Positions 8,701-46,864 of a stretch of DNA of 64,000 nt are shown here, in pieces. Source of the DNA: a virus (taxonomy: Duplodnaviria > Caudoviricetes); IMG/VR virus record IMGVR_UViG_3300037067_008519, positions 58,332 through 122,331 of that record, one strand, 5' to 3'. The translations under genes were made by a program, and so were the position numbers. The notes beneath the pieces are model-generated. The model was not told the DNA's origin. It saw only the letters and a list, made by a program, of their open reading frames with translations, and ran no database searches. The stretch's first letter is position 1; each line of letters starts with the position of its first letter.

Positions 8701-10105
8701 CTATGTGAGAAACCCGTCTTTAGAGGTTCCAAATACTTTAGATACTGTACCGAGTGAATGGGAAATTATTCTTGGCAGTAGCGGATCATTTACATATGGG
8801 AATAATGCGGCTTTTGCCAAATATGGTAGACGATATGCTGAATTTAGCCCCGGTTCTGGTGGTATGCCTTGTGATTTTTATATTAGAACATCAGGTTCTT
8901 ATCCAGATGGTAAATATATCATACCTATTAATAATGATGCTCTTGAAGGTAGATATTACACTATAAGCTGTTATGCTTCTACCGATTCTAATTCTTATGC
9001 TGAGGCTTGGGTAGATGAGGTTGATCAATCAGGAAGCACTATAGCTAGTCATTATCTTTGTAGCGCTTGGGGGGCTGCTTGTTTACAAGCTATGACTCGT
9101 CATGTAGTCACATTCACTCCTAGTAGTGGATCTTCTGGAATTTTGTTTAATGCAAGACAAGACCAAAATATGTTACATTCTGGAAGTGTGAGATTTGATG
9201 CTTTTCAATTAGAAGAAGGAAATCAGGTTACAGATTTTAAAGTTACTTATGAATTGGGTACAGTAGTAATAGATTCTAGTGGTATCGTTGTTGACCATGG
9301 GCCTAATAAAGCTAGGACTATTATTAATGCTGATGGGATAACTGTTGAACGAGGAAGTATTTTTATTAATAATAGTGAAAATATTGATTTAACAGATCAA
9401 ATAAGTATTGGTGATAATTTGATATATAACCCTACTTTTAGTTTGACGAAGTTTGACGGAGATAAGAGAATACCTGAAGGTTGGAATTTATTTTCTGGAA
9501 GCTATCCCATCACTTCCCATTATTCTGTTGAAACAGGAAATCCTATTAATGAAGAAGGAATCGGTATTAGTTATTTGAAGATAAACCCCTCTGGTTCTGG
9601 TATACATAATTTTTCTTCTATGAAAATACCTGTTGAGGAAAATAGTATTTATTCATTATCTACTTATTATTATGTTCCCTCTGGTACTTCTGATTTAGAT
9701 ATGGTGTTTTATCTTTATTATTCTACAAATTCAAATAATATTAATAGTTTATATGATACTAGTTCAGATAACATGTTAATTCCTCGGGGAGATGTTTTTG
9801 AGTATTTATATGATGGGGATTATCCCGTCATTGAAAGTATCTGGCGAGAGAAACAGTGGGAAGATATTAGGATAAATAATGATGGATATCTTTATATTAT
9901 GGGAACTGTTAATCCTGATAATGACTGTGTTACTACAGATGTTAGATTTACAGGCATTCGTCTTGAGCGGGGGGATAGATGCACGAAAAGAAAACAACAA
10001 GAAATTGAGATGATTGAGAAAAAATTAAGTTTATATAAAAAGGGAATGGCTAAAAGTATGCAAGGAAAATATATAATAGAGGGCTTAGACCTTAGTATAG
10101 GGTAA
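5768..10105 (+). CDS. tail spike/central fibre: N-terminal OB-fold-like domain, CBM-like domains, FN3 repeats; start uncertain
   Basis: The frame of ORF 6227..10105 is open without stops back to 5747. The extension reads KGRISSIDYSTGTAIVVI...YSPGDPVIIL (spike OB-like) and NELVINGD (CBM start). FN3-like motifs; NYVRNPSLE and NLIYNPTF CBM starts. Confidence 0.7.
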   Translation: MIDKSDYNIILEIVQSLIGENLGKTITKGRISSIDYSTGTAIVVINDRSYTPVTLDPSAGYSPGDPVIILEPIIGGGGQAQPIIIGKDEGGAPIPPGGNELVINGDLRDDAFGWLGQDATVSVSTDFAISGIYSLKIIPDAAYQDCGTYQDINVVATIPGELYKHEASFFTQSTNGIEIVLDGEWYDKDGNSLTNAPYNKSNRVIITNNDSWVTLTMYNRCPQNAVYLTVRFLAKFYDAEDILYVDNMSFFGKSSAIPGGTVTHLHSRNYDKTPCLDVINLTAAAGMEVIVDKYNFFMDLDFDHIDTSAYGPSGTWDNTDFDHYEVYYAPSGSDWITYGNVVITPPQTSGASISYKINHLGENTNYNVMVKTCDLQGNRSSGAALYNILSSGNKFPHAPEFVDDKCSFLTENAEIFWNPVTTNEDDTSSAIGGLSSDTKDYKIEVVVGGTEKRVEYTNATHYTYKLGNNKSDNGTPNPVITFNIYTRDFGDKISSGTQKILTNYAPDIVEGLTADFTTKDAIFWWNPVITDSEDAALLDFDTYVLTITPSGGSPTTLYTQDARYTYKFEDNVDNIPNVNLKVQARDKFAQLGTSGNSTAINSVPDKGPTPEVQTGFKKVLIHWTSPEEIAQLDSDEKDVERIQLWSSGNSDYSLLSEQTNNFFVHDVELNSTHKYKVRFIDCFGQSGSLSEASNEAFTNDYITLRDMEGSAYQLIPTSSYEDTYIGASDENDISRLYDSYSNSYAYFGSGEQWIEYEFPVSHTFNKAVVNFPTDNIYKYFYAYRPNSGDSWIYVAGGDHNNLVEYVDTIISGESWTGKTLAYQSLITASGTQAVDTFDYMRDARYWRFYFPSGDYVWDENKLCELKFSTYVIADEIDTGTINLAKGINLYNNETGSGFHMDETGAFFENGYISVLGDGYTIIQDGEIWVKSSGASSEGRLNDFFEDEEGTTRIRGGYIKTGTIDTEILRIMGKGYFQNYVRNPSLEVPNTLDTVPSEWEIILGSSGSFTYGNNAAFAKYGRRYAEFSPGSGGMPCDFYIRTSGSYPDGKYIIPINNDALEGRYYTISCYASTDSNSYAEAWVDEVDQSGSTIASHYLCSAWGAACLQAMTRHVVTFTPSSGSSGILFNARQDQNMLHSGSVRFDAFQLEEGNQVTDFKVTYELGTVVIDSSGIVVDHGPNKARTIINADGITVERGSIFINNSENIDLTDQISIGDNLIYNPTFSLTKFDGDKRIPEGWNLFSGSYPITSHYSVETGNPINEEGIGISYLKINPSGSGIHNFSSMKIPVEENSIYSLSTYYYVPSGTSDLDMVFYLYYSTNSNNINSLYDTSSDNMLIPRGDVFEYLYDGDYPVIESIWREKQWEDIRINNDGYLYIMGTVNPDNDCVTTDVRFTGIRLERGDRCTKRKQQEIEMIEKKLSLYKKGMAKSMQGKYIIEGLDLSIG

Positions 10106-19828: not shown

Positions 19829-21862
19829 ATGTACAGTAGGGTAAGAAAAATTGATAATAGGTATGTTGTTTTTAACCCTGAGAAGATATCAAATAGTATA
19901 ACTAGAGCTTTAGTTTCTACTAATACTAATGGGGTTGTACCCGATGATTTGACTGAAGAAGTTATAAATATTCTACCTGAATATGTTAAATATAAAATTG
20001 CCAGTACAGAAGAGATAGCTAAGGCTGTTGAATTTATTCTTATGGATAAAGGATGTTCAGAAGCAGCTAAGGCTTATATTCTTTATAGGGAAGAAAGAAT
20101 AAGGGCTAGAGAAGGAAAAAGTAGTTTGATGCAGGCTGTTGAGGAAATCACTACAGAATATAAAAAAGATAACAGCAATACCCCACCTGGATTTTCGGCT
20201 AAAGTATTTCAAGTTTCCGAAATGGCTCTTATCAAATACAATATGCAAAGGGTTTTATCAAAAGAATCTGCTGAAGCACATATCAATGGGGATATTCATA
20301 TTCACGATTCTTTTGCGGTAGGTCTTGCTTTTAATTGTTTATATATCCCAATTAGAAAATTATTATTGAATGGCTTTTCTACAGGAACAGGACCGATAAG
20401 ACCTCCACGAAGGCCGGATTCCATTTTTGCTTTAGCCGCTATAGTTTTTCAAAGTGCTCAAAATGATGCTTTTGGCGGCATGGCTATGGCTCATTTTGAT
20501 GAGGATATTGCAGAAGTTTTGAGACAGAATTGTAAGGGAGGTTTTTCAGATAAGGAACTATTTCAAGCGGTTGAGGGTTTTATATATAATCTAAATACCC
20601 TTTCTAGCAGATTTGCAGCACAGCGCCCTTTCAGTAGCATAGGAATAGGAACGGATATATCCCCAGAAGGCAGGGCAGTAACAAAAGCTATTCTTGATGT
20701 TATGGAATTAGGAATGGACGGTCTTACTTTTATATGGCCTAATATACTTTTTAAAATTAAAAGTGGAATAAATTATGAGCCGGGAACTCCAAACCATGAT
20801 TTGTTAATAAGAGCTATGGAAGTTTCAGCCAAAAGGCTTAATCCTACTTATATTTTTTGTGATACAACATTTAATAAAAGTTATACAGAATGTATATCAA
20901 GTATGGGTTGTAGAACTCGTGTATCTTATGATGTGCATGGCATAAATACACAGGACGGTAGGGGTAATATTTCTTTTACTACTATTAATCTTCCTAGGAT
21001 TGCTCTCGAATCAAATGGAAATGAAAATAGATTTTTTGAAATATTAAATGAAAGAATGAATCTGGTAGAAAAACAATTAATTGAAAGATTAGAATTAGTT
21101 GGAAAATTAAAGAAGAAGGATTTTGCTTTTATTATGGGGCAACACCTTTATGCTGAAAGTGATAAATTAAAAGAGAATGATGATATTTATCCTTGTTTAA
21201 TACATGGTACTCAAAGTATCGGTTTTTGTGGTCTTGATGAAACAATTAAAATTCTAACTGGAAATTTTATGTGGGAATCTGATTCATCTTGGGAATTAGG
21301 CTATAAAATTATAAAGTTTATGAGGGGATGTACAGACAATTATACTAAGAAACATAATCTTAATTTTACTCTATTTCAAACTCCTGCTGAATCGGCTTCA
21401 GGTAGGTTTTGCAGATTAGATAAAGAAAGATTTGGAGAGATAGAAGATGTAACGGATAAAGATTTCTATACTAATTCCTCTCATATGGCTGCGGATGCTC
21501 CACTTACTGTTGTTGATAAGATTAAAAAAGAAGCCCCTTTTCATGCTTTAACTAATGCAGGGCATATATGTCATTTATATTTAAGTTCCCCTCCATTGGG
21601 AAATGTAGAGGCCATTAAACAAATAATTGATTGTGCATATGAATCTGATATAGGGTATTTAGCAGTAAACTATGCTATAAATGAATGTTTGGGTTGTGGA
21701 TTTGGAGATCCAATTACTAGGGATAAATGTCCGAAGTGTGGTAGTGAGAATATAAATAGGTTAGCAAGAATTACGGGGTATATTTCTCCGATTAATATTT
21801 GGAATGATGGAAAACTTGCCGAGCTCAAAAGGAGGCCAGATGGTAAAGGAAATAAAAATTAA
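19829..21862 (+). CDS. nrdD: anaerobic ribonucleoside-triphosphate reductase (class III) with ATP cone
   Basis: ATP-cone N-terminus, HIHD, SMGCRT, INLPR, TPAES, CxxC..CPKCGS, RITGY glycyl-radical loop. Confidence 0.95.
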   Translation: MYSRVRKIDNRYVVFNPEKISNSITRALVSTNTNGVVPDDLTEEVINILPEYVKYKIASTEEIAKAVEFILMDKGCSEAAKAYILYREERIRAREGKSSLMQAVEEITTEYKKDNSNTPPGFSAKVFQVSEMALIKYNMQRVLSKESAEAHINGDIHIHDSFAVGLAFNCLYIPIRKLLLNGFSTGTGPIRPPRRPDSIFALAAIVFQSAQNDAFGGMAMAHFDEDIAEVLRQNCKGGFSDKELFQAVEGFIYNLNTLSSRFAAQRPFSSIGIGTDISPEGRAVTKAILDVMELGMDGLTFIWPNILFKIKSGINYEPGTPNHDLLIRAMEVSAKRLNPTYIFCDTTFNKSYTECISSMGCRTRVSYDVHGINTQDGRGNISFTTINLPRIALESNGNENRFFEILNERMNLVEKQLIERLELVGKLKKKDFAFIMGQHLYAESDKLKENDDIYPCLIHGTQSIGFCGLDETIKILTGNFMWESDSSWELGYKIIKFMRGCTDNYTKKHNLNFTLFQTPAESASGRFCRLDKERFGEIEDVTDKDFYTNSSHMAADAPLTVVDKIKKEAPFHALTNAGHICHLYLSSPPLGNVEAIKQIIDCAYESDIGYLAVNYAINECLGCGFGDPITRDKCPKCGSENINRLARITGYISPINIWNDGKLAELKRRPDGKGNKN

Positions 21863-22645: not shown

Positions 22646-22854
22646 AGGATATTATCTATTCAATTTGGGATTATGCTAATGAAAATCCTAGATTATTTAT
22701 GATTCAAACTGAGAATACTAGAGATGAATTTGAAACAACAAAGAGTCTTTGGTGGGAAAATGGTATAGGAACAATAACAGAAGTTACAGAAGAAGAGTTT
22801 GATTTATTGGCTAAAAAGGTAGGTAAGAATGATTCGGATAGGCAAAGTTCTTAG
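22642..22854 (+). CDS. hypothetical protein
   Basis: ATGA overlap, SD GGAGG. Confidence 0.55.
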   Translation: MKDIIYSIWDYANENPRLFMIQTENTRDEFETTKSLWWENGIGTITEVTEEEFDLLAKKVGKNDSDRQSS

Positions 22855-23323
22855 AGATTCGGTAGTGGATGGTTCGGGACTTAGAGTAGTTGTTTTTCTA
22901 GCCGGTTGCTCTCATAAACCTAAATGTAAAGAGTGTCACCAAAAATGGCTCTGGGAACCAGATTCAGGTGGAGGATTTACAGTAGAGGAAGTTTATCAAC
23001 AAGTTATTAATGCTGGTTATAACAAACCTAATATTGCTTTGACGATTAGCGGCGGGGAACCTTTGGATAGTTATGAAGAACTTCTAAATCTACTACGAAT
23101 GATTAAGACTGAGTATCCTTGGAAAGATTCTATCTGGTTGTACACAGGGCATACTTTTGATGAAGTAAAGAAGAGTTATCCATTGATTCTAGAATATGTT
23201 GATGTTGTTATAGATGGTAAATATGATAAAAGTAAAAAAGAGTTAAATTTTGGTAAGTATCGTGGAAGTTGTAACCAAAATAAATGGGCAAAGGATGGCC
23301 TGATATGGAAGATGGAATATTAA
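22829..23323 (+). CDS. nrdG: anaerobic RNR activating enzyme (radical SAM)
   Basis: DSVVDGSGLRVVVFLAGC..KCKECH, SGGEP, WLYTG, DVVIDGKY, RGSCNQ. Confidence 0.93.
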   Translation: MIRIGKVLRDSVVDGSGLRVVVFLAGCSHKPKCKECHQKWLWEPDSGGGFTVEEVYQQVINAGYNKPNIALTISGGEPLDSYEELLNLLRMIKTEYPWKDSIWLYTGHTFDEVKKSYPLILEYVDVVIDGKYDKSKKELNFGKYRGSCNQNKWAKDGLIWKMEY

Positions 23324-24293
23324 TTGGAGAATAAAATTCAACTGTGGGAATTACAACAAAAACAGTCTCTTCCTTTAGAGATGAAAGTAATTATGACTCA
23401 AAGAAGGATTAGAGATTGGTATGAACATTGGGGGGGGGCAAGTATATGTATCTTTCTCTGGTGGCAAAGACTCAACAGTCTTGTTAAGTTTAGTAAGGGA
23501 TATGTATCCTGATGTTCCTGCTGTGTTTTTTGATACCGGACTTGAATATCCAGAAATCAGGGATTTTGTTAAAACTTTTGATAATGTAGTATGGCTAAAA
23601 CCTAAGAAAACATTCAAGAAAGTTATAGAGGAATATGGTTATCCGGTAGTTAGTAAAAATGTTTCTAGATTTGTTTGGGATTTACGCAGACCCAATAGCG
23701 CAAAGAATGAAAATGTAAAAAATTTGAGATTAACAGGATATAATCAAAAAGGAGAATACTGCCCTTCTATGAAATTGTCAAATAAATGGACGAAACTTGT
23801 TGATGCCCCCTTTGATATTTCTGATAAATGTTGTGATATTATGAAAAAAGACCCCGCGAAAAGGTTTGTTAAAGAATCAGAAAGTAATCCAATTATAGGA
23901 ACTTTAGCTGAAGAATCTAGAATGAGAACAAGAGTTTATTTAAGAACAGGATGTAATGCTTTTGAATGTAAAAATCCTTATTCGATGCCCATGAGTTTTT
24001 GGACTAATCAGGATATTTTAGCATTTCTGAAAAAAACTACATTAAATTATTGTTCTGTTTATGGAGATATAAAAGAAACTAATGATGGATTAATTTTAAC
24101 AGGAGAACAAAGGACGGGGTGTATGTTTTGTATGTTTGGAGTGCATATGGAAAATAACCCTAATAGATTTCAACGTATGGCTATAACACATCCAACACAG
24201 TATAAATATTGCATGGAAAATTTAGGATTAAAAGAAATTCTTGAATACATTGGCGTAGAATATAAACCATCTGAACAAATTAAATTATTTTAA
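23324..24293 (+). CDS. PAPS-reductase-family (PP-loop) protein, split by a +1 frameshift at G9
   Basis: ORF 23324..23512 gives LQQKQSLPLEMKV..RIRDWYEHW; ORF 23421..24293 gives QVYVSFSGGKDS...CC..MKK...RTGCMFC. They join as WGGQVYVSFSGGKDS if the tract is G8. Confidence 0.85.
23430..23438 (+). repeat. poly-G tract (G9) at frameshift
   Basis: CATT-G9-CAAGT. Confidence 0.9.
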
Positions 24294-30592: not shown

Positions 30593-31057
30593 ATGGATAG
30601 TCCTTTTAATATTAAACTTATGATTGATGGAAAAATTATACAACAAAACATGGAAGAGATTTTAAAAGTAGACGATTCAAATCCTCTTGCTTTGGCGAAT
30701 CAATTGAAAGACAATCCTAATATTCTTTTCTATTGGGGGAGTTTGGGGGAAAGGTGTTCTACAAGATTGCATGATATCGAAATGAAGTTTGATGTTTGGT
30801 ATGCAAACAAAGCAGCAAAAGCGAAAGAACAATTGTTGGAAAGTGGAGAGGTAACTAAGTCTTCTATCACAGGGAGTATTATAAAAAACAAAATCATTCA
30901 AGATAATCAAGAAGAGTGGATTAAATTTAAAGATGAAATAAACCGTTGGTCATATTATGAGGGAATTCTTTCAAAAGCAGAGAAAAGCATTAAAGCAAAA
31001 AATGATGTACTGGTTAATTTATTAAGTTTTCATAAAGAAATGGCAAGAAATGTATGA
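30593..31057 (+). CDS. UvsY-like recombination mediator (helical)
   Basis: 154 aa helical protein with L..QL...P....YW pattern, near recA. Confidence 0.45.
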   Translation: MDSPFNIKLMIDGKIIQQNMEEILKVDDSNPLALANQLKDNPNILFYWGSLGERCSTRLHDIEMKFDVWYANKAAKAKEQLLESGEVTKSSITGSIIKNKIIQDNQEEWIKFKDEINRWSYYEGILSKAEKSIKAKNDVLVNLLSFHKEMARNV

Positions 31058-31818
31058 AAGAAATAGCCTTAACCCAGGATAAAAATACTATTGTAGATGA
31101 TGAATGCTTTGAATGGTTAAATCAATGGAAATGGTGTGCTAAACGAGATAGAAATACTTTTTATGCCGCTAGACATGAAACTAAAGAAGAGTATCTTGTC
31201 GATGGAAGAAATTCCAAACAAAGAAAAACCATCTTGATGCATCGAGCTATTATAGAAAGAAAATTAGGAAGAAAATTAGAATATAAAGAAGAGATTGACC
31301 ATGAAGATCATAATGGTTTAAATAACCAAGAAAATAATTTAAGGATTTGTACTAAACAAGAAAATCAGTTTAATCAAAAATCAAAGAGGGGCGTTTCTGA
31401 ATATAAAGGTGTACATCTTGACAAAGAAACAGGAAAATGGGTAGCAAAAATAACCATCAATGGAAAAAATAAACATTTAGGGTTGTTCGATGATGAAACT
31501 CTTGCCGCAGTTGCCTATAACAAAGCAGCCGTAGAATACTTTGGTGAGTTTGCTTATTTGAATGAGGGGCCAGAACTTGACAAATATACTTTTGAAGATA
31601 TTGATAAACTTAGGTATAAAGGAAATGGGAGTTCAAAGTATAAAGGCGTTAGCTGGAAGGAATCCAATCATAAATGGAGAGCCTTTATTTATATTAATGG
31701 GAAGCATGTTCATTTAGGGTACTTTACAAAAGAAGAGGATGCGGCCCTAGCCTATAATAGTTATGTTTTAGAAAAAGGATTAAATAAGAAATTAAATATT
31801 ATAGAAGGAGGACTATAA
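31054..31818 (+). CDS. HNH endonuclease with two AP2 domains
   Basis: LTQ..IVDD..EWL.QWKW, MHR, DH.DHNGLNN..NL, two YKGV.W/H...W.A.I.ING...LG.F AP2 units. Confidence 0.9.
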   Translation: MKEIALTQDKNTIVDDECFEWLNQWKWCAKRDRNTFYAARHETKEEYLVDGRNSKQRKTILMHRAIIERKLGRKLEYKEEIDHEDHNGLNNQENNLRICTKQENQFNQKSKRGVSEYKGVHLDKETGKWVAKITINGKNKHLGLFDDETLAAVAYNKAAVEYFGEFAYLNEGPELDKYTFEDIDKLRYKGNGSSKYKGVSWKESNHKWRAFIYINGKHVHLGYFTKEEDAALAYNSYVLEKGLNKKLNIIEGGL

Positions 31819-32847
31819 TTGGCTAAAAAGAAAAAGGAAGAAACCAAGGAAGATTTTCTTGATGGGTTAGAGCCTGAGATAAGCCTAGCTATCAAAGAAA
31901 TTAATAAGAAATATGGTGATGGTTCTATACAGATAGGAACTGATGTTGTTAAGAATGTAGAAGTTATACCTACTTCTAGTTTAGCTCTAGATGAGGCTCT
32001 TGGTGTAGGGGGTATTCCAAAAGGATCTATCGTAGAAATTTATGGTAGCCCCGGCGTAGGCAAGACAACCCTTGCTCTAGAGATTTTGATAGAAGCTCAG
32101 AAAACAGGTGAATGGATTGGTATAGTTGATATGGAAAATTCTCTTTATCTGGACTATGCCGATAGGTTAGGACTCAATCGAGAAAAAATAATGTTTGCCC
32201 AGCCAGGGTCAGCAGAGGAAGCTCTGGATGATGTAGATGTTATGATAAAAACAGAAAAAGTTAAGATGATAATGATTGATTCAGTAGCCGCTTTGGTTCC
32301 TCTGGCAGAGCTAGAAGGGAAGGTTGAAGATCAGCACATTGGTAGACAAGCTAGATTAATGAGTCAGTTCCTTAGAAGGATTTCTCCTATAGTAAACAAG
32401 ACAGGTTGCACAGTTATTTTTATTAATCAGACTAGGCAGAAGATTGGAATGTACGGTGGAGGAACGACAACCCCCGGCGGGAATGCCCTTAAATTCCATT
32501 CACAGATTAGGATAGAGATTAGTCCTATAGAACAGATTAAAGATACGCAAGGCGTACAGATAGGGACTTTAATCAAGGCTAGGATAGTGAAGAACAAATT
32601 TGCGCCGCCTTATAGGGTAGCTCAGTTTGAATTAATATTTGGAGAAGGTATAGATCAGACTAGAGAAGTTCTTGAGTTAGCTATCTTAGATGGTTGTATT
32701 AATAAAAATGGGGCTTGTTATTATTACTTAGGTGAGCTGGTAGCAAGGGGTAGAGAATCTATGCGAGGATATCTTAATGATAATCCTGATATACTGGCTG
32801 AAATCAAAGAGAAAGTTTTGGGGGATAGTGAAAATATCTCTAATTGA
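31819..32847 (+). CDS. recA: recombinase RecA
   Basis: LD.ALG.GG.PKG.IVEIYG..GVGKTT, IDSVAAL, ARLMSQ, FINQ.R, GG.ALKF, KNK. Confidence 0.96.
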   Translation: MAKKKKEETKEDFLDGLEPEISLAIKEINKKYGDGSIQIGTDVVKNVEVIPTSSLALDEALGVGGIPKGSIVEIYGSPGVGKTTLALEILIEAQKTGEWIGIVDMENSLYLDYADRLGLNREKIMFAQPGSAEEALDDVDVMIKTEKVKMIMIDSVAALVPLAELEGKVEDQHIGRQARLMSQFLRRISPIVNKTGCTVIFINQTRQKIGMYGGGTTTPGGNALKFHSQIRIEISPIEQIKDTQGVQIGTLIKARIVKNKFAPPYRVAQFELIFGEGIDQTREVLELAILDGCINKNGACYYYLGELVARGRESMRGYLNDNPDILAEIKEKVLGDSENISN

Positions 32848-33728
32848 CGTAGACAGTAAAATACCAAATCTTCCTTTGATGAAATTATCTACATGGCATA
32901 AAGCACAAGGGGATGAAGTAGATATCTATAGCCCTGTTTGGAGCAAACCAGATAAGGTTTATGTTAGCAAAGTATTTAACTATACTTCTGATTTCAATTA
33001 TTTTCCTGATGGTGTGGAAATTGTTAAAGGAGGAAGCGGATACGATTTAAAATCTGAATTACCCGATGAAATAGAAAATGCATATCCCGATTATCAAATA
33101 TTTGATTGTGACTATGCTATGGGATTCACAACTAGGGGTTGTATCAGAAATTGCCCATTCTGTATCGTAAGGAGAAAAGAAGGAAAGATAAAATCTGTTG
33201 CTGATATTTATAATTTCTGGGGGGGGGCAGCAAAGAATACGTTTATTAGATAATAACCTTAATGCTCTTCCAAATCATTTTGAAATAGTAGTTAAGCAAT
33301 TAATAAAAGAAAAGTTAAAAGTTGATTTTAGTCAAGGATTAGATATTAGATTAATAACATTAGAAATGGCACAGCTTCTTGCACAGGTTAAATTGTGGAA
33401 ATCTATTCATTTTGCATGGGACAATATAAAAGATGAAAAAGAAATTAGAGAAGGTATTAAAATTCTAGAAAGAGGAGGAGTCAAACTTTATAATTGTATG
33501 TTTTATGTCTTAGTGGGATTTAATTCTACTGAAGAAGAAGACCTTTATAGGATTAACACTTTGTGGAAAGATTTAGGGGTTTACCCATTTGTGATGCCTT
33601 TTAATAAAAAAGATAGATACCAAAAAGATTTAGCAAGATGGGTTAATCATAAAGCTATTTTTAAAACTGTAGAATGGAAAGATTATAGGAGGAGTAGGAA
33701 TGTTTATTTATCTAATTCTACCTGTTAG
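32828..33728 (+). CDS. radical SAM protein, split by a +1 frameshift at G9
   Basis: KISLIDVD..IPNLPLMKLS, GGSGY, TRGCIRNCPFC in frame 1; LLDNN, QGLD.RL, FAWD, YVLVGF, ARWVN in frame 2. They join as FWGGQQRIRLLDNN if the tract is G8. Confidence 0.85.
33219..33227 (+). repeat. poly-G tract (G9) at frameshift
   Basis: TTCT-G9-CAGCA. Confidence 0.9.
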
Positions 33729-34062
33729 AAATGTGGAAGAAAAATTTTCAAAGGCTATGGATGGCTATGTTGGAGAATTAGAAAGTAAAGGAAATGTTGT
33801 GCATTATCCACCAAGAGACACTAACCAAGAAGATATTACAGGATATAATATATGTTGGGATCATTTTGAAGCTATGGAAAGTTGTGATGAGGTTCATGTA
33901 GCGTGGGACGGTAAAAGTCAAGGGTGTTTGTTTGATTTAGGTATGGCTTTTGCGTTGAATAAGAAAGTGATAGTGATTGAGGGATACTTTCCTGAAGCTA
34001 CAGAAGGTAAAAGTTATCAATCTATGGTTAGGGAATGGCAAAGGAGATATGTTAGTGAGTAG
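33700..34062 (+). CDS. nucleoside 2-deoxyribosyltransferase/N-glycosidase family protein
   Basis: IYLI.P, V..P.RD, CD.V...D..S.G..FDLGMAFAL.K. Confidence 0.75.
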   Translation: MFIYLILPVRNVEEKFSKAMDGYVGELESKGNVVHYPPRDTNQEDITGYNICWDHFEAMESCDEVHVAWDGKSQGCLFDLGMAFALNKKVIVIEGYFPEATEGKSYQSMVREWQRRYVSE

Positions 34063-34426
34063 AGATTTAGAAAGTTGGAGGGAAGCAAATAATACTATCT
34101 GTCTAGATTTTGATGGTGTTATACACAAATACAGTCAAGGTTGGCAGGGTGGAAATCTTTATGATGAGCCTATTGATGGGGCAATAGAATCTATTTGTGA
34201 ACTTTGTCAAGCTGGTTATAAATTAGTTATTCTTACTGCTCGTTGTGAAAAGCATAATGAAATACTTGATTGGTTTAAAGATGAAGCAGCAAAAAGAGGT
34301 CTTTGCAATTGTCGCAAAGTAAATTGTCCTGAAGTTACTAATATTAAACCCCCCGCTCGGGTTTACATAGATGATCGTGGAATAAGATTTACAAATTGGA
34401 ATGACATACTTTCATATTTTTTATAA
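34055..34426 (+). CDS. HAD-family phosphatase/nucleotidase
   Basis: ICLDFDGVIH, ILTAR, KP...YIDDRG. Confidence 0.8.
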   Translation: MSRDLESWREANNTICLDFDGVIHKYSQGWQGGNLYDEPIDGAIESICELCQAGYKLVILTARCEKHNEILDWFKDEAAKRGLCNCRKVNCPEVTNIKPPARVYIDDRGIRFTNWNDILSYFL

Positions 34427-38184: not shown

Positions 38185-41181
38185 ATGACTTTTAACCTCT
38201 TTACGGCCTATGAAAATTGGATACCTAATAAAAGAATAATTAGAACCAAAGAGGGGTTGCAGGAACTTGTAGATAGGCTCAGTAATTCTAAACTATTTTC
38301 GTGTGATGTTGAAACCCCTGAGATTGGTTCTGAAGAAATGTATATCTTAGGTATAGGTTTTGCAGAAGGTTCCGATTCTTGGTACATTCCTGTTAATCAC
38401 ACTTCTACTTTTGAACAGCTACCGATGAAGGCAGTAGTGAAGGCTCTCAAGCCTGTATTTTCTGACCAAAAGATAGCTAAAGTATTCCATAATGCCAAAT
38501 TTGATGTGAATATGTTAAGTATTTATGACGTAGAAGTCAAAGGATTGATACTCGATACTATTTTCATGGTTTGGTTATGTCAAGAGGAGCATCAGGATAA
38601 GGATTTGAAAAACTCGGCCCGCCGGGATTTGGGTATGGTTCTGAAAAAATATAAAGATGTTAATGGCGGCGATCTAGAAAATGCTTCAATCAGAGAGGTT
38701 GCTCATTATTGTCGAATGGATTGCAAAGCTACGCTAGGTCTGTATAATTTTTATAAACCTGTAATCCAAGAAGAAGAATTGTCAGTGGTGTTTAAAAATG
38801 AAATGGATTTGCTTCCTGTAACTATGGCTATGGAAAAAGAAGGGATGCTGATAGATAGAGAAAAACTAGAGGCATTAGGGAAACAGTTAAATGAGCACAT
38901 TCAAGAATTAACCCCACAGATACACAAGCTCTTAGGTAAGAGGATTAATATCAAATCAACACAACAATTAGCTGAGATTCTTTATGATGAATTAGGGTTA
39001 GTCTGCGAAAGAACAACGAAGAAAGGAAATAGAAGTACCGATATTGAGGCATTAAGAGATATGCAGGGACAGCATGAGGTAATAGACTTATTGATAGAGT
39101 ACAGAAAGTATAATACTTGGTATTCTACTTTTGTTAAAGGGATAACTAAAAAGATAAAGAAAAATGGTAAAGTGTATGCTAACTTTAATCAGGCCGGGGC
39201 TATCTCAGGAAGGTATTCTAGCTCTAAACCTAATCTACAAAATATACCTAGAGATGAAACTAATCTAAAGATAAGGGGAATTTTCATAGCTCCCCCCGGT
39301 TACAAGATTATCTGTGCCGACTATAGCCAGCTTGAATTAAGATTGATTTCTCGTTTCTCTGGTGACCCTAAATTAGTTTATGCTTACAAAAATGATATAG
39401 ACGTTCATACCCTTACTGCTAGTCAGATGTTCAAGGTTGATTTTGATAAAGTTGATACTGAACAGAGATATATAGCCAAGACCATTAACTTCGCAAGCGG
39501 GTATGGTACATCACCAGGAACTCTTAGAGAAATATTAAGAGATGGGGGTAAGACAGTAGATATGGATGAAGCTAAAGAATTACTTAATATGCATCATAGA
39601 GTTTATAAGAGATGGTATGCTTGGGGCGAAGAGATGATTGCTGAGTGTGAAAAATGTGGTTATGCTAAATCTTGGTTAGGCAGACGTAGGAGATTACCTG
39701 ATATTAATGCTAAAGAATACGGTATAAAAGCTGAAGCAGGTAGACAAGCCGTGAATCATATTGTGCAAAGTTGTATTGAAGAATCACAATCTATCCTTAC
39801 TAAGAATGGGTATATTCCTATATCAAAACTTGATGGAGAGTCTATTTTTAATGGAGAAATATGGACTTCCAATTATAATGTGTATCCCACAGGAGAAAGA
39901 GAAGTTTATAGACTGAATCTATCTGGTGGAAAACATATTTTATCCACATTAGAACATAGATTTTTCAAATGGAATCCGGCTTCTTTAAAAATAGAAGAAT
40001 GTTATTTAAGAGATTTAAATCCCACAAAGGATTGGGTAGTGACTTCTACGCAAGGATCTATTGATGGGTTATTAAAAGAAAATGTTAAAGGAATTTACGA
40101 TGGTCATTATAGGGCTTCATACAAAAAATTAGAACAACCCAAAGGAATTACTGAAGATGAAGTTTATTTGTTGGGGTATTTAGTAGGAGATGGTTACTAT
40201 GGGACTAAGAAAGGGAAAGACCATTATGGCTCTATTTATATTGCTTTTGGAAATATTGAACATCCAGACATAGAAAAGGCCAAAACATACAAAAAGGAAA
40301 CAGAAAGAATTTATAATCTTTTAATACGCCTTTATCCAAATCTCAATGTAAGAATTAGACAAGCAAGAAATGGGAGTCGCACGGGATTTAATACAAATCT
40401 ATGTTTTACTTCTATAATTCTTAGAGACAGGTTGGAAAAATTAGAATTGGGTCCTGTTTCTAAAAAAGATAAAAGAATACCGTCTTGGATTTTTACATCT
40501 TTGCCTAAATATAAAATAGCTTTTATAAAAGGGTATATGGATGCAGACGGTAATATTTCAAAAACAGGGCTTGTTCAATTAACAACAGTAGTCGAAGAAT
40601 TGGCACATGGAATGTTATTATTATTAAATTCATTAGGAATTGACGCTGGCTATCATAAGTATGGAAAGGGTAAAAATATCTTTTTTAAAGTAAACATAAG
40701 AAGTAAGGATATCCAAAAATACTATGAATTGGTGGGGTTTGAAAATTTCTCTAAAAAAGAAAGGTTAAAAGATTGTATAGAAAAACAAAAACACATGCGA
40801 AACGGCTTGAACACAAGCATTTCTGGATTTGAACAAGTTTTTAGCATTGAGAAGGTGGGGGTTTATTCAACCTATGATATTGAAATTTTAGAAGGTAAAC
40901 AGGCTTTTGTTTGTGAGGGAATACTTGTTCATAACTCAGCAAGCGGTGACGTAGTTAAGACAGCTATGATAAGACTATTTAATTCAAAAAAATTTATAGA
41001 GTTGGGTTGTAAGATAGTTAGTCAGGTGCATGATGAATTAATCATTATATGTCCAGAAGATAATGTTGATGAAGTAGTTCCTTTGGTAAAAGAAATTATG
41101 GAACACCCTTTGGAAAAAGATTTAGGAATAGATTTGCCTGTAAGTATAGGTATAGGTAACAGTTGGGATGAGGCCAAGTAA
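38185..41181 (+). CDS. polA: family A DNA polymerase with 3'-5' exonuclease, intein-containing
   Basis: DVET, HNAKFD, YC.MD; GR.SSS.PNLQNIP, DYSQLELR, AKTINF...YG, QVHDEL. Confidence 0.96.
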   Translation: MTFNLFTAYENWIPNKRIIRTKEGLQELVDRLSNSKLFSCDVETPEIGSEEMYILGIGFAEGSDSWYIPVNHTSTFEQLPMKAVVKALKPVFSDQKIAKVFHNAKFDVNMLSIYDVEVKGLILDTIFMVWLCQEEHQDKDLKNSARRDLGMVLKKYKDVNGGDLENASIREVAHYCRMDCKATLGLYNFYKPVIQEEELSVVFKNEMDLLPVTMAMEKEGMLIDREKLEALGKQLNEHIQELTPQIHKLLGKRINIKSTQQLAEILYDELGLVCERTTKKGNRSTDIEALRDMQGQHEVIDLLIEYRKYNTWYSTFVKGITKKIKKNGKVYANFNQAGAISGRYSSSKPNLQNIPRDETNLKIRGIFIAPPGYKIICADYSQLELRLISRFSGDPKLVYAYKNDIDVHTLTASQMFKVDFDKVDTEQRYIAKTINFASGYGTSPGTLREILRDGGKTVDMDEAKELLNMHHRVYKRWYAWGEEMIAECEKCGYAKSWLGRRRRLPDINAKEYGIKAEAGRQAVNHIVQSCIEESQSILTKNGYIPISKLDGESIFNGEIWTSNYNVYPTGEREVYRLNLSGGKHILSTLEHRFFKWNPASLKIEECYLRDLNPTKDWVVTSTQGSIDGLLKENVKGIYDGHYRASYKKLEQPKGITEDEVYLLGYLVGDGYYGTKKGKDHYGSIYIAFGNIEHPDIEKAKTYKKETERIYNLLIRLYPNLNVRIRQARNGSRTGFNTNLCFTSIILRDRLEKLELGPVSKKDKRIPSWIFTSLPKYKIAFIKGYMDADGNISKTGLVQLTTVVEELAHGMLLLLNSLGIDAGYHKYGKGKNIFFKVNIRSKDIQKYYELVGFENFSKKERLKDCIEKQKHMRNGLNTSISGFEQVFSIEKVGVYSTYDIEILEGKQAFVCEGILVHNSASGDVVKTAMIRLFNSKKFIELGCKIVSQVHDELIIICPEDNVDEVVPLVKEIMEHPLEKDLGIDLPVSIGIGNSWDEAK
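39772..40935 (+). mobile_element. intein with LAGLIDADG homing endonuclease (~388 aa)
   Basis: CIEESQSILT block A, TLEHRF block B, LLGYLVGDG and FIKGYMDADG, YDIEI...GILVHN followed by Ser. Confidence 0.92.
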
Positions 41182-46581: not shown

Positions 46582-46864
46582 TTTTATTTCGTGGCCCCGC
46601 GCTGGGGGCAAGACAACCCTTCTAGCGGCAATATCAAAACTTGAAATGCAACTGAAACAACGAGAAAAAATAATTTGGAAAGTTGAATTACAAAATGTCT
46701 CAGGAAAGGACGGAAAACCCGATACTGCTAATTTATCCATATTTACTTCACTCCCAAAAGTTATTTATATTGGTGTTTCTCTTGAAAGGTTGATGGGATG
46801 GGGCCAGCGTAGAAAACTGTTAGATGATTTGCTTGAGATGATAAAAAAGGAGACAGGAAAATGA
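46574..46864 (+). CDS. hypothetical protein with isolated P-loop-like motif
   Basis: WPRAGGKTT. Confidence 0.45.
   Translation: MNSFISWPRAGGKTTLLAAISKLEMQLKQREKIIWKVELQNVSGKDGKPDTANLSIFTSLPKVIYIGVSLERLMGWGQRRKLLDDLLEMIKKETGK

Follow-up and report, generated by a model that had tools for sequence, protein, structure and literature searches.

Two phage genes split at G tracts of equal length

The stretch of DNA analysed here, which we refer to as the window, is 64,000 nucleotides long and comprises bases 58332-122331 of IMGVR_UViG_3300037067_008519, a metagenome-assembled tailed-phage genome record (122,331 bases, linear, estimated to be 79% complete). Two unrelated genes in this window, one resembling radical S-adenosylmethionine (radical-SAM) enzymes and the other similar to PAPS reductases of the PP-loop type, are each divided between two reading frames at a run of nine G's (G9). 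The parts of the two genes, all on the + strand, are as follows, with coordinates given in the window.

32828..33226, + strand: N-terminal half of the radical-SAM gene, with a GTG start, in frame 2; Rossmann-like N-domain and Fe-S cluster loop, ending ..NFWGG
33140..33163, + strand: CxxxCxxC motif (C-IRN-C-PF-C), the [4Fe-4S] ligands, as read from the sequence
33219..33227, + strand: G9 tract, one G above the in-frame G8, which shifts the reading frame from frame 2 to frame 0
33228..33728, + strand: C-terminal half of the radical-SAM gene, in frame 0, from QQRIRLLDNN to the stop; remainder of the barrel
23324..23437, + strand: N-terminal leader of the PAPS-like gene, about 37 codons, in frame 2, ending ..RIRDWYEHWGG
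23430..23438, + strand: second G9 tract, like the radical-SAM tract in its T-G9-CA context, in its phase and in being one G too long
23439..24293, + strand: body of the PAPS-like (PP-loop) gene, in frame 0, with SGGKDS at 23457-23474

The upstream open reading frame (ORF) of the radical-SAM gene, which begins at the GTG at 32828, runs into a stop at 33253, and the downstream frame is open from 33198 to 33728. Deletion of one G joins the two into a 299-aa radical-SAM product reading ..DIYNFWGGQQRIRLLDNN.. / ..FWGGQQRIRLLDNN.., in which the FWGGQ of the G8 form has the same spacing as the FW[RNH]GQ....LLDNN of intact relatives (FW-x-GQ). An initial annotation of this DNA had claimed that the tract at 33219-33227 parts the CxxxCxxC half from the LLDNN half and that G8 repairs the gene, and both the product length and the relatives' spacing agree with that claim. 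The two halves matched adjoining parts of one protein family, phrog_9298 ('radical SAM domain protein'): the N half with an E value of 1.4e-47 over positions 1-130 of the 305-position profile, and the C half with an E value of 2.6e-37 over positions 137-295. Identity to intact relatives is 60-65% in the N half and 60-67% in the C half, the start of the gene aligns with the relatives' MKI.L.DVDSKIPNL, and the C half contains no additional stop or shift. In a 30-sequence alignment of the family, the three cysteines (C104, C108 and C111 of the relative P0007) are invariant, as is W130, and G132 and Q133 are nearly so. The nearest radical-SAM homologue found in a protein search of 5.8 billion proteins is 71% identical.

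One relative (IMGVR_UViG_3300032038_000547, L120:1501-2358) has a TGA where the FW-x-GQ motif otherwise has its invariant Trp. An alternative genetic code at this locus was considered and rejected: table 11 leaves the remaining ORFs there intact, which makes the TGA a nonsense allele. The radical-SAM gene is evidently dispensable in nature. Separately, three short database homologues (P0006, P0026 and P0031) begin at MLLDNN, just past the site, and might be further split genes.

The PAPS-like gene is divided in the same manner. Its leader aligns with the conserved leader of about 70 relatives (..RIREWYEHW[DNG]GQVYVSFSGGKDS), and its body matches PF01507 (68.9 bits against a cut-off of 22.5) and phrog_424 (E 1.7e-46). 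With G8, the PAPS-like product reads ..WYEHWGGQVYVSFSGGKDS, which is the family consensus HW[DNG]GQ. An ORF at 23421..24293 also opens with an ATG, at 23421, in frame with the body; judging by its placement, a leaderless, N-terminally truncated PAPS-like product might be made from it in the G9 state.

Both breaks lie within the 12-mer TGGGGGGGGGCA, which occurs exactly twice, at 23429-23440 and 33218-33229, each time on the + strand. The two tracts are in one phase (TGG GGG GGG GCA in the upstream frame) and take the same correction, removal of a single G, after which both genes read WGGQ, as the initial annotation had also noted. The common 12-mer follows from the coding sequence, since both families keep W-x-G-Q at this position, x is Gly in both genes, and both Gly codons are spelt GGG in this phage.

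Other homopolymers in the genome do not break reading frames

No other G run in the window is as long as the two G9 tracts; two G7 and seven G6 runs come next. The G7 runs and the G6 run at 9969 lie inside intact ORFs, and the same was true of each of the G6-G7 runs that had been singled out at first reading. Across the whole 122-kb genome, which has a G+C content of 36%, an order-1 Markov model predicts 0.32 runs of at least nine G's per strand, compared with three observed (P ~0.004). In 2000 synonymous shuffles with proteins and codon usage held fixed, 0.89 runs of at least eight G's were expected and three were observed (P = 0.06), GGG accounting for 20% of the Gly codons. The expected number of matches to the 12-mer at up to one mismatch was 0.21, and two matches were reached in 2 of 100 shuffles. 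Taken alone, the tracts are thus only mildly surprising; what departs from chance is that each of the two gene breaks in this region lies exactly within a G9 tract.

The third G9 of the genome (ATT-G9-AAA) lies outside the window, at genome positions 46582-46590 (L168:783-791). It is in frame (..PLQIGGGKY..) within a 186-aa ORF of the late/virion region, for which no Pfam match and a sub-threshold PHROG match (E 0.006) were obtained. None of the genome's four A8 runs, its single T8 and C7 runs or its three G7 runs breaks an ORF, and a sample of 811 kb from other IMG/VR loci includes several G8 and G9 runs that keep the frame cleanly. The intact frames around these runs of the genome and around its third G9 speak against homopolymer error across the board and against a consistent overcall of G8 as G9.

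Poly-G recurs at the same codons of the PAPS-like gene in other phages

To survey the PAPS site, IMG/VR was scanned with a degenerate DNA pattern consisting of W-Y-x-x-W, then at least six G's, then Q-V-Y-V. Three other phage contigs were recovered with poly-G at the exact W-G-G-Q codons of the PAPS-like gene.

IMGVR_UViG_3300006636_000007 (L169/L012; L012:1660-1700), 15 kb: T-G6-T, out of frame, with G7 needed
IMGVR_UViG_3300045988_085338 (G001), 108.6 kb, complete: T-G8-CA, in frame (..EWYETWGGQVYVSFSGGKDS)
IMGVR_UViG_3300013947_000025 (G002), 124.4 kb, complete: T-G10-CA, out of frame

Over the four phages, the PAPS site therefore holds G6, G8, G9 and G10, which cover all three frames, and each off allele is otherwise intact. 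Lengths in all three frames fit DNA slippage better than a fixed recoding event, and three independent miscalls at this site, one of them of 2 nt (G10), are unlikely. A search of phage genomes for T-G(8-10)-CA within the two families had been proposed by the initial annotation; it succeeded at the PAPS site, where G8 and G10 were found in other phages, but not at the radical-SAM site, where none was. Around the tract, G001 and G002 share only about 77% identity. Neither gave a match to the polymerase or the radical-SAM gene of the present phage, and we treated them as unrelated to it, empty searches being weak evidence.

G002 carries six tracts of at least eight G's (loci L178, L184, L186, L189 and L191). 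Two of these lie in paralogous, Dam-like D12 adenine methyltransferase genes, at one homologous N-terminal W-G-G site: one copy has G8 and is in frame (FTWGGQ), and the other has G9 and would need G8. Two more tracts of at least eight G's are found in neighbouring unannotated ORFs. The methylase pair is a classic contingency pattern in DNA-modification genes.

The sequence context of the tracts is also recurrent. A T precedes eight of the nine tracts of at least eight G's in this phage (G000), G001 and G002, a count made without conditioning on context, where about 39% would be expected among non-G bases; CA follows 2 of 7 tracts in an independent set. T-Gn-CA recurs in four gene families, namely the PAPS-like, radical-SAM and D12 methylase families and a small ORF. 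This pattern may stem simply from a TGG codon for Trp with Gly-Gly-Gln after it, or from a preference for the context itself.

The small ORF is in G001 (L179:1469-1528), where T-G10-CA lies in a 19-codon reading frame that has a good ribosome-binding site and is placed immediately upstream of the following gene. A poly-G switch of the leader-peptide type may be at work here.

Predicted nature of the two proteins

Neither half of the radical-SAM gene matched PF04055, and its full-length relatives score 16-27.5 bits, under the cut-off of 29.5. The structural comparison was made with the relative P0007, which is 69% identical over the C-terminal half, and not with the broken gene of the window; its AlphaFold model has a pLDDT of 92, and the best Foldseek matches of the model are MtaB, MiaB, MgmA and TsrM (E down to 6e-8, probability 1.0, TMq 0.63). 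Each of these four enzymes has two domains, with a radical-SAM barrel following a Rossmann-like N-domain. By its CxxxCxxC motif, its match to phrog_9298 and the predicted barrel fold of its relative, the protein resembles members of the radical-SAM superfamily. The tract sits in a loop just ahead of the second barrel strand (the LLDNN segment), so that neither half could work alone. In cultured Clostridium and Bacteroides phages, the gene is placed among replication and recombination genes, without an assigned role.

For the PAPS-like gene, a possible parallel is DNA phosphorothioation, in which a PAPS-reductase domain, alongside a P-loop NTPase, acts in sulfur insertion (DndC/SspD/BrxP; PMC12914056). 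The neighbours of the gene are NrdG and an RNA ligase, and a P-loop NTPase partner is absent next to it, no genome-wide partner search having been made. A role in DNA modification is thus a conjecture for this gene, and the label of 'modification enzymes' that the initial annotation gave to both genes is plausible as a reasonable guess. Co-occurrence across loci lends no support to a functional link between the two genes: a PAPS-like match was found within 1.5 kb at 2 of 83 radical-SAM loci, and a radical-SAM match within 3 kb at no PAPS locus.

Reversible slippage and its alternatives

We favor the explanation, with a probability of roughly 0.62, that both G9 runs are real, reversible, slippage-prone tracts, that is, simple-sequence contingency sites, which were caught off. 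According to this model, the genome would be replicated by the phage's own family-A polymerase, and slipped-strand mispairing would add or remove a G at high frequency. Each gene would then toggle between G8, giving a full-length product, and G9 (or G10 after a further gain), giving a truncated one. The assembled consensus would have caught both genes with one G too many and hence both off, a state in which the Fe-S half of the radical-SAM protein would be parted from the rest of the barrel, and the 37-codon leader of the PAPS-like protein from the PP-loop body. Tract length would be expected to vary within this phage's own population. Switching may be adaptive, for instance as bet-hedging over a DNA or nucleotide modification that is required by some host defences and punished by others. 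Most likely, the two tracts act independently; as such they could give the four on/off combinations foreseen by the initial annotation, but not through the single shared switch that it proposed.

Several observations weigh against this explanation. Among about 83 relatives of the radical-SAM gene, none has a G run longer than four at the tract site and none is frameshifted there, and the pattern survey for this site returned unrelated sequences only. No near-identical genome was found, the nearest radical-SAM homologue being the 71% identical protein mentioned above: a polymerase-based search of IMG/VR for near relatives and scans of metagenome contigs for DNA identical to the flanks of either tract gave no match, and the cultured-phage collection contains distant matches alone, with no close relative. 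Both breaks are in the same direction (+1), as technical bias could also give. Finally, the excess of tracts over the codon-shuffle expectation is weak (P = 0.06) and does not establish selection for them. The status of the radical-SAM tract accordingly rests on its likeness to the PAPS tract, on the two being in the same state in one genome, and on the otherwise intact gene.

The first alternative is a sequencing or assembly artefact, in which both tracts would really be G8 and both genes whole, the ninth G being either a miscalled homopolymer base or a minority variant that the assembler chose. Several platforms err most often in long G runs, the record was assembled from a metagenome, and the same +1 error would have been made in near-identical contexts in two genes that are otherwise perfectly intact. 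We nevertheless consider an artefact rather unlikely, because the A8, T8, C7 and G7 runs of the same genome break no frame and its third G9 is in frame, because G8 and G9 runs are in frame in the 811 kb of other loci, and because G6, G8 and G10 occur at the PAPS site elsewhere.

Non-adaptive decay is a second alternative: the tracts would have arisen by chance from W-G-G codons and slipped once, and both accessory genes would be dead in this lineage. The codon-shuffle null nearly explains the number of tracts, the radical-SAM tract is unique to this phage, and the nonsense codon in the L120 relative is an example of natural gene loss. Against this, neither gene carries a second lesion, and their halves keep 60-67% identity to intact relatives, while a G9 tract by its nature reverts easily. 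Poly-G also reappears at exactly this PAPS site in unrelated phages, and in the methylase paralogues of G002, which points to a maintained feature, and we regard decay as improbable.

Lastly, G9 could be fixed, with the full-length enzymes produced by programmed recoding, either through RNA-polymerase slippage or through +1/-2 ribosomal slippage of tRNA-Gly, and with T-G9-CA as the shared signal. Context and phase are indeed identical in the two genes (TGG GGG GGG GCA), and by sequence logic a 9-nt run would extend over the full RNA-DNA hybrid, and a tRNA paired with GGG in the P site could re-pair perfectly at +1 or -2. The one shared switch or recoding signal envisaged by the initial annotation found no support, however, in any of the features examined. 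The flanks of the two tracts are unrelated outside T-G9-CA when aligned, no shared downstream RNA structure was detected (fold z = 0.24 and -1.7), an Rfam scan yielded no element, and a promoter/terminator scan for a shared signal yielded nothing. The zero-frame codon following the G run, and so occupying the A site, is an ordinary GCA, neither a stop nor an obviously slow codon. Transcriptional slippage in bacteria, as described, concerns A/T runs (PMC6260861). Sites of prfB-type +1 frameshifting or transcriptional slippage likewise yield a trans-frame product from a slippery run, but they have a conserved shifted arrangement and stimulatory elements (PMC5009743), both of which are absent here. 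About 75 radical-SAM relatives and most of the PAPS-like relatives (about 75) are single uninterrupted ORFs without a tract, one phage has an in-frame G8, and the lengths fall in every frame, so that one programmed shift cannot serve; the two-frame arrangement is not conserved. A low-level leak by polymerase or ribosome slippage on G9 is plausible, but there is no sign of such a leak as a designed mode of expression. We therefore judge programmed recoding to be very unlikely. Were T-G9-CA a genuine shared recoding site, with G9 fixed and both enzymes held at a set low level by +1/-2 tRNA-Gly slippage or polymerase stuttering, one trans-acting condition (e.g., Gly-tRNA supply or nucleotide pools in infection) would tune two Fe-S / PP-loop enzymes together, an arrangement that we find most improbable.

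Relation to known contingency loci

Homopolymer contingency loci have been recognised in phages only recently. Campylobacter phages contain hypermutable poly-G tracts (Sorensen et al. 2021, Cell Rep 35:109214, as cited in PMC12823448). As that citing account summarises them, these resemble the tracts described here in being runs of about 8-10 G's in phage coding sequence, where a change of one G toggles the product and progeny are mixed; they differ in lying in receptor-binding/virion genes, in having hosts that themselves use poly-G phase variation, and in that the variation was measured. The tracts of the present phage are instead in radical-SAM and PP-loop genes of an uncultured, NrdD/NrdG-encoding phage.

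In the T-even phages, the A9 run of T2 agt (DNA glucosylation) is a measured contingency locus that hedges between two type IV restriction systems, and contingency loci of this group hedge between hosts restricting modified and hosts restricting unmodified DNA (Gomez, Barrick and Waters, bioRxiv 10.1101/2025.10.21.683753). Like the genes of the window, T2 agt (A9) and T4 rIIA (A6) have a homopolymer in an accessory gene of the DNA-modification type and undergo reversible frameshifts (bioRxiv 10.1101/2025.10.21.683753). Unlike them, they are A runs, from coliphages in culture for which reversion rates were measured and the defence systems are defined; the runs here are G runs. Bacterial phasevarions and methyltransferase contingency loci share the on/off control of nucleic-acid-modifying enzymes by simple repeats, as seen in the D12 paralogues of G002. 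Those systems are cellular, chromosomal and mostly of the restriction-modification type, in contrast to the viral setting here, where the two window genes are not methyltransferases.

The kind of switch is thus known; what is new is the gene families involved (phrog_9298 radical-SAM and PAPS-like PP-loop) and the codon-exact recurrence of the tract at the PAPS site. Should reversible slippage be the correct explanation, contingency loci would extend to two widespread phage families of unassigned role. The data also suggest that selection on the PAPS-like family fluctuates in the way that it does for DNA-modification genes. This would provide a lead on the role of common 'auxiliary metabolic' genes, for example in a DNA or nucleotide modification that is of benefit against some host defences and a liability against others. 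For annotation, split genes of this type should be checked at read level before they are merged or thrown out as errors.

Genomic setting

The genome encodes a family-A DNA polymerase, DnaB helicase, beta clamp, NrdD and its activase NrdG, a DNA methylase and a CCA-adding enzyme, and strong Shine-Dalgarno sites are used by this phage. The presence of NrdD and NrdG points to an anaerobic host. The following features of the window lie around or near the two split genes.

19829-21862: NrdD, anaerobic ribonucleotide reductase
22829-23323: NrdG, radical-SAM activase of NrdD, ending 1 base before the start of the PAPS-like gene
31054-31818: ORF with HNH and repeated AP2-like DNA-binding motifs, homing-endonuclease-like, directly upstream of a RecA-like gene
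33700-34062: weakly nucleoside 2-deoxyribosyltransferase-like ORF directly following the radical-SAM gene (PF05014, 22.9 bits against a cut-off of 28.8)
33977-34426: HAD/phosphatase-like ORF (phrog_1238), overlapping the ORF at 33700-34062
38185-41181: family-A DNA polymerase gene, carrying an intein with a LAGLIDADG homing-endonuclease domain

The ORFs at 33700-34062 and 33977-34426 suggest a small nucleotide-metabolism cluster downstream of the radical-SAM gene. The homing-endonuclease-like ORF at 31054-31818 has a single DNA-level match among cultured phages, to the HNH endonuclease of Bacillus phage pW2.

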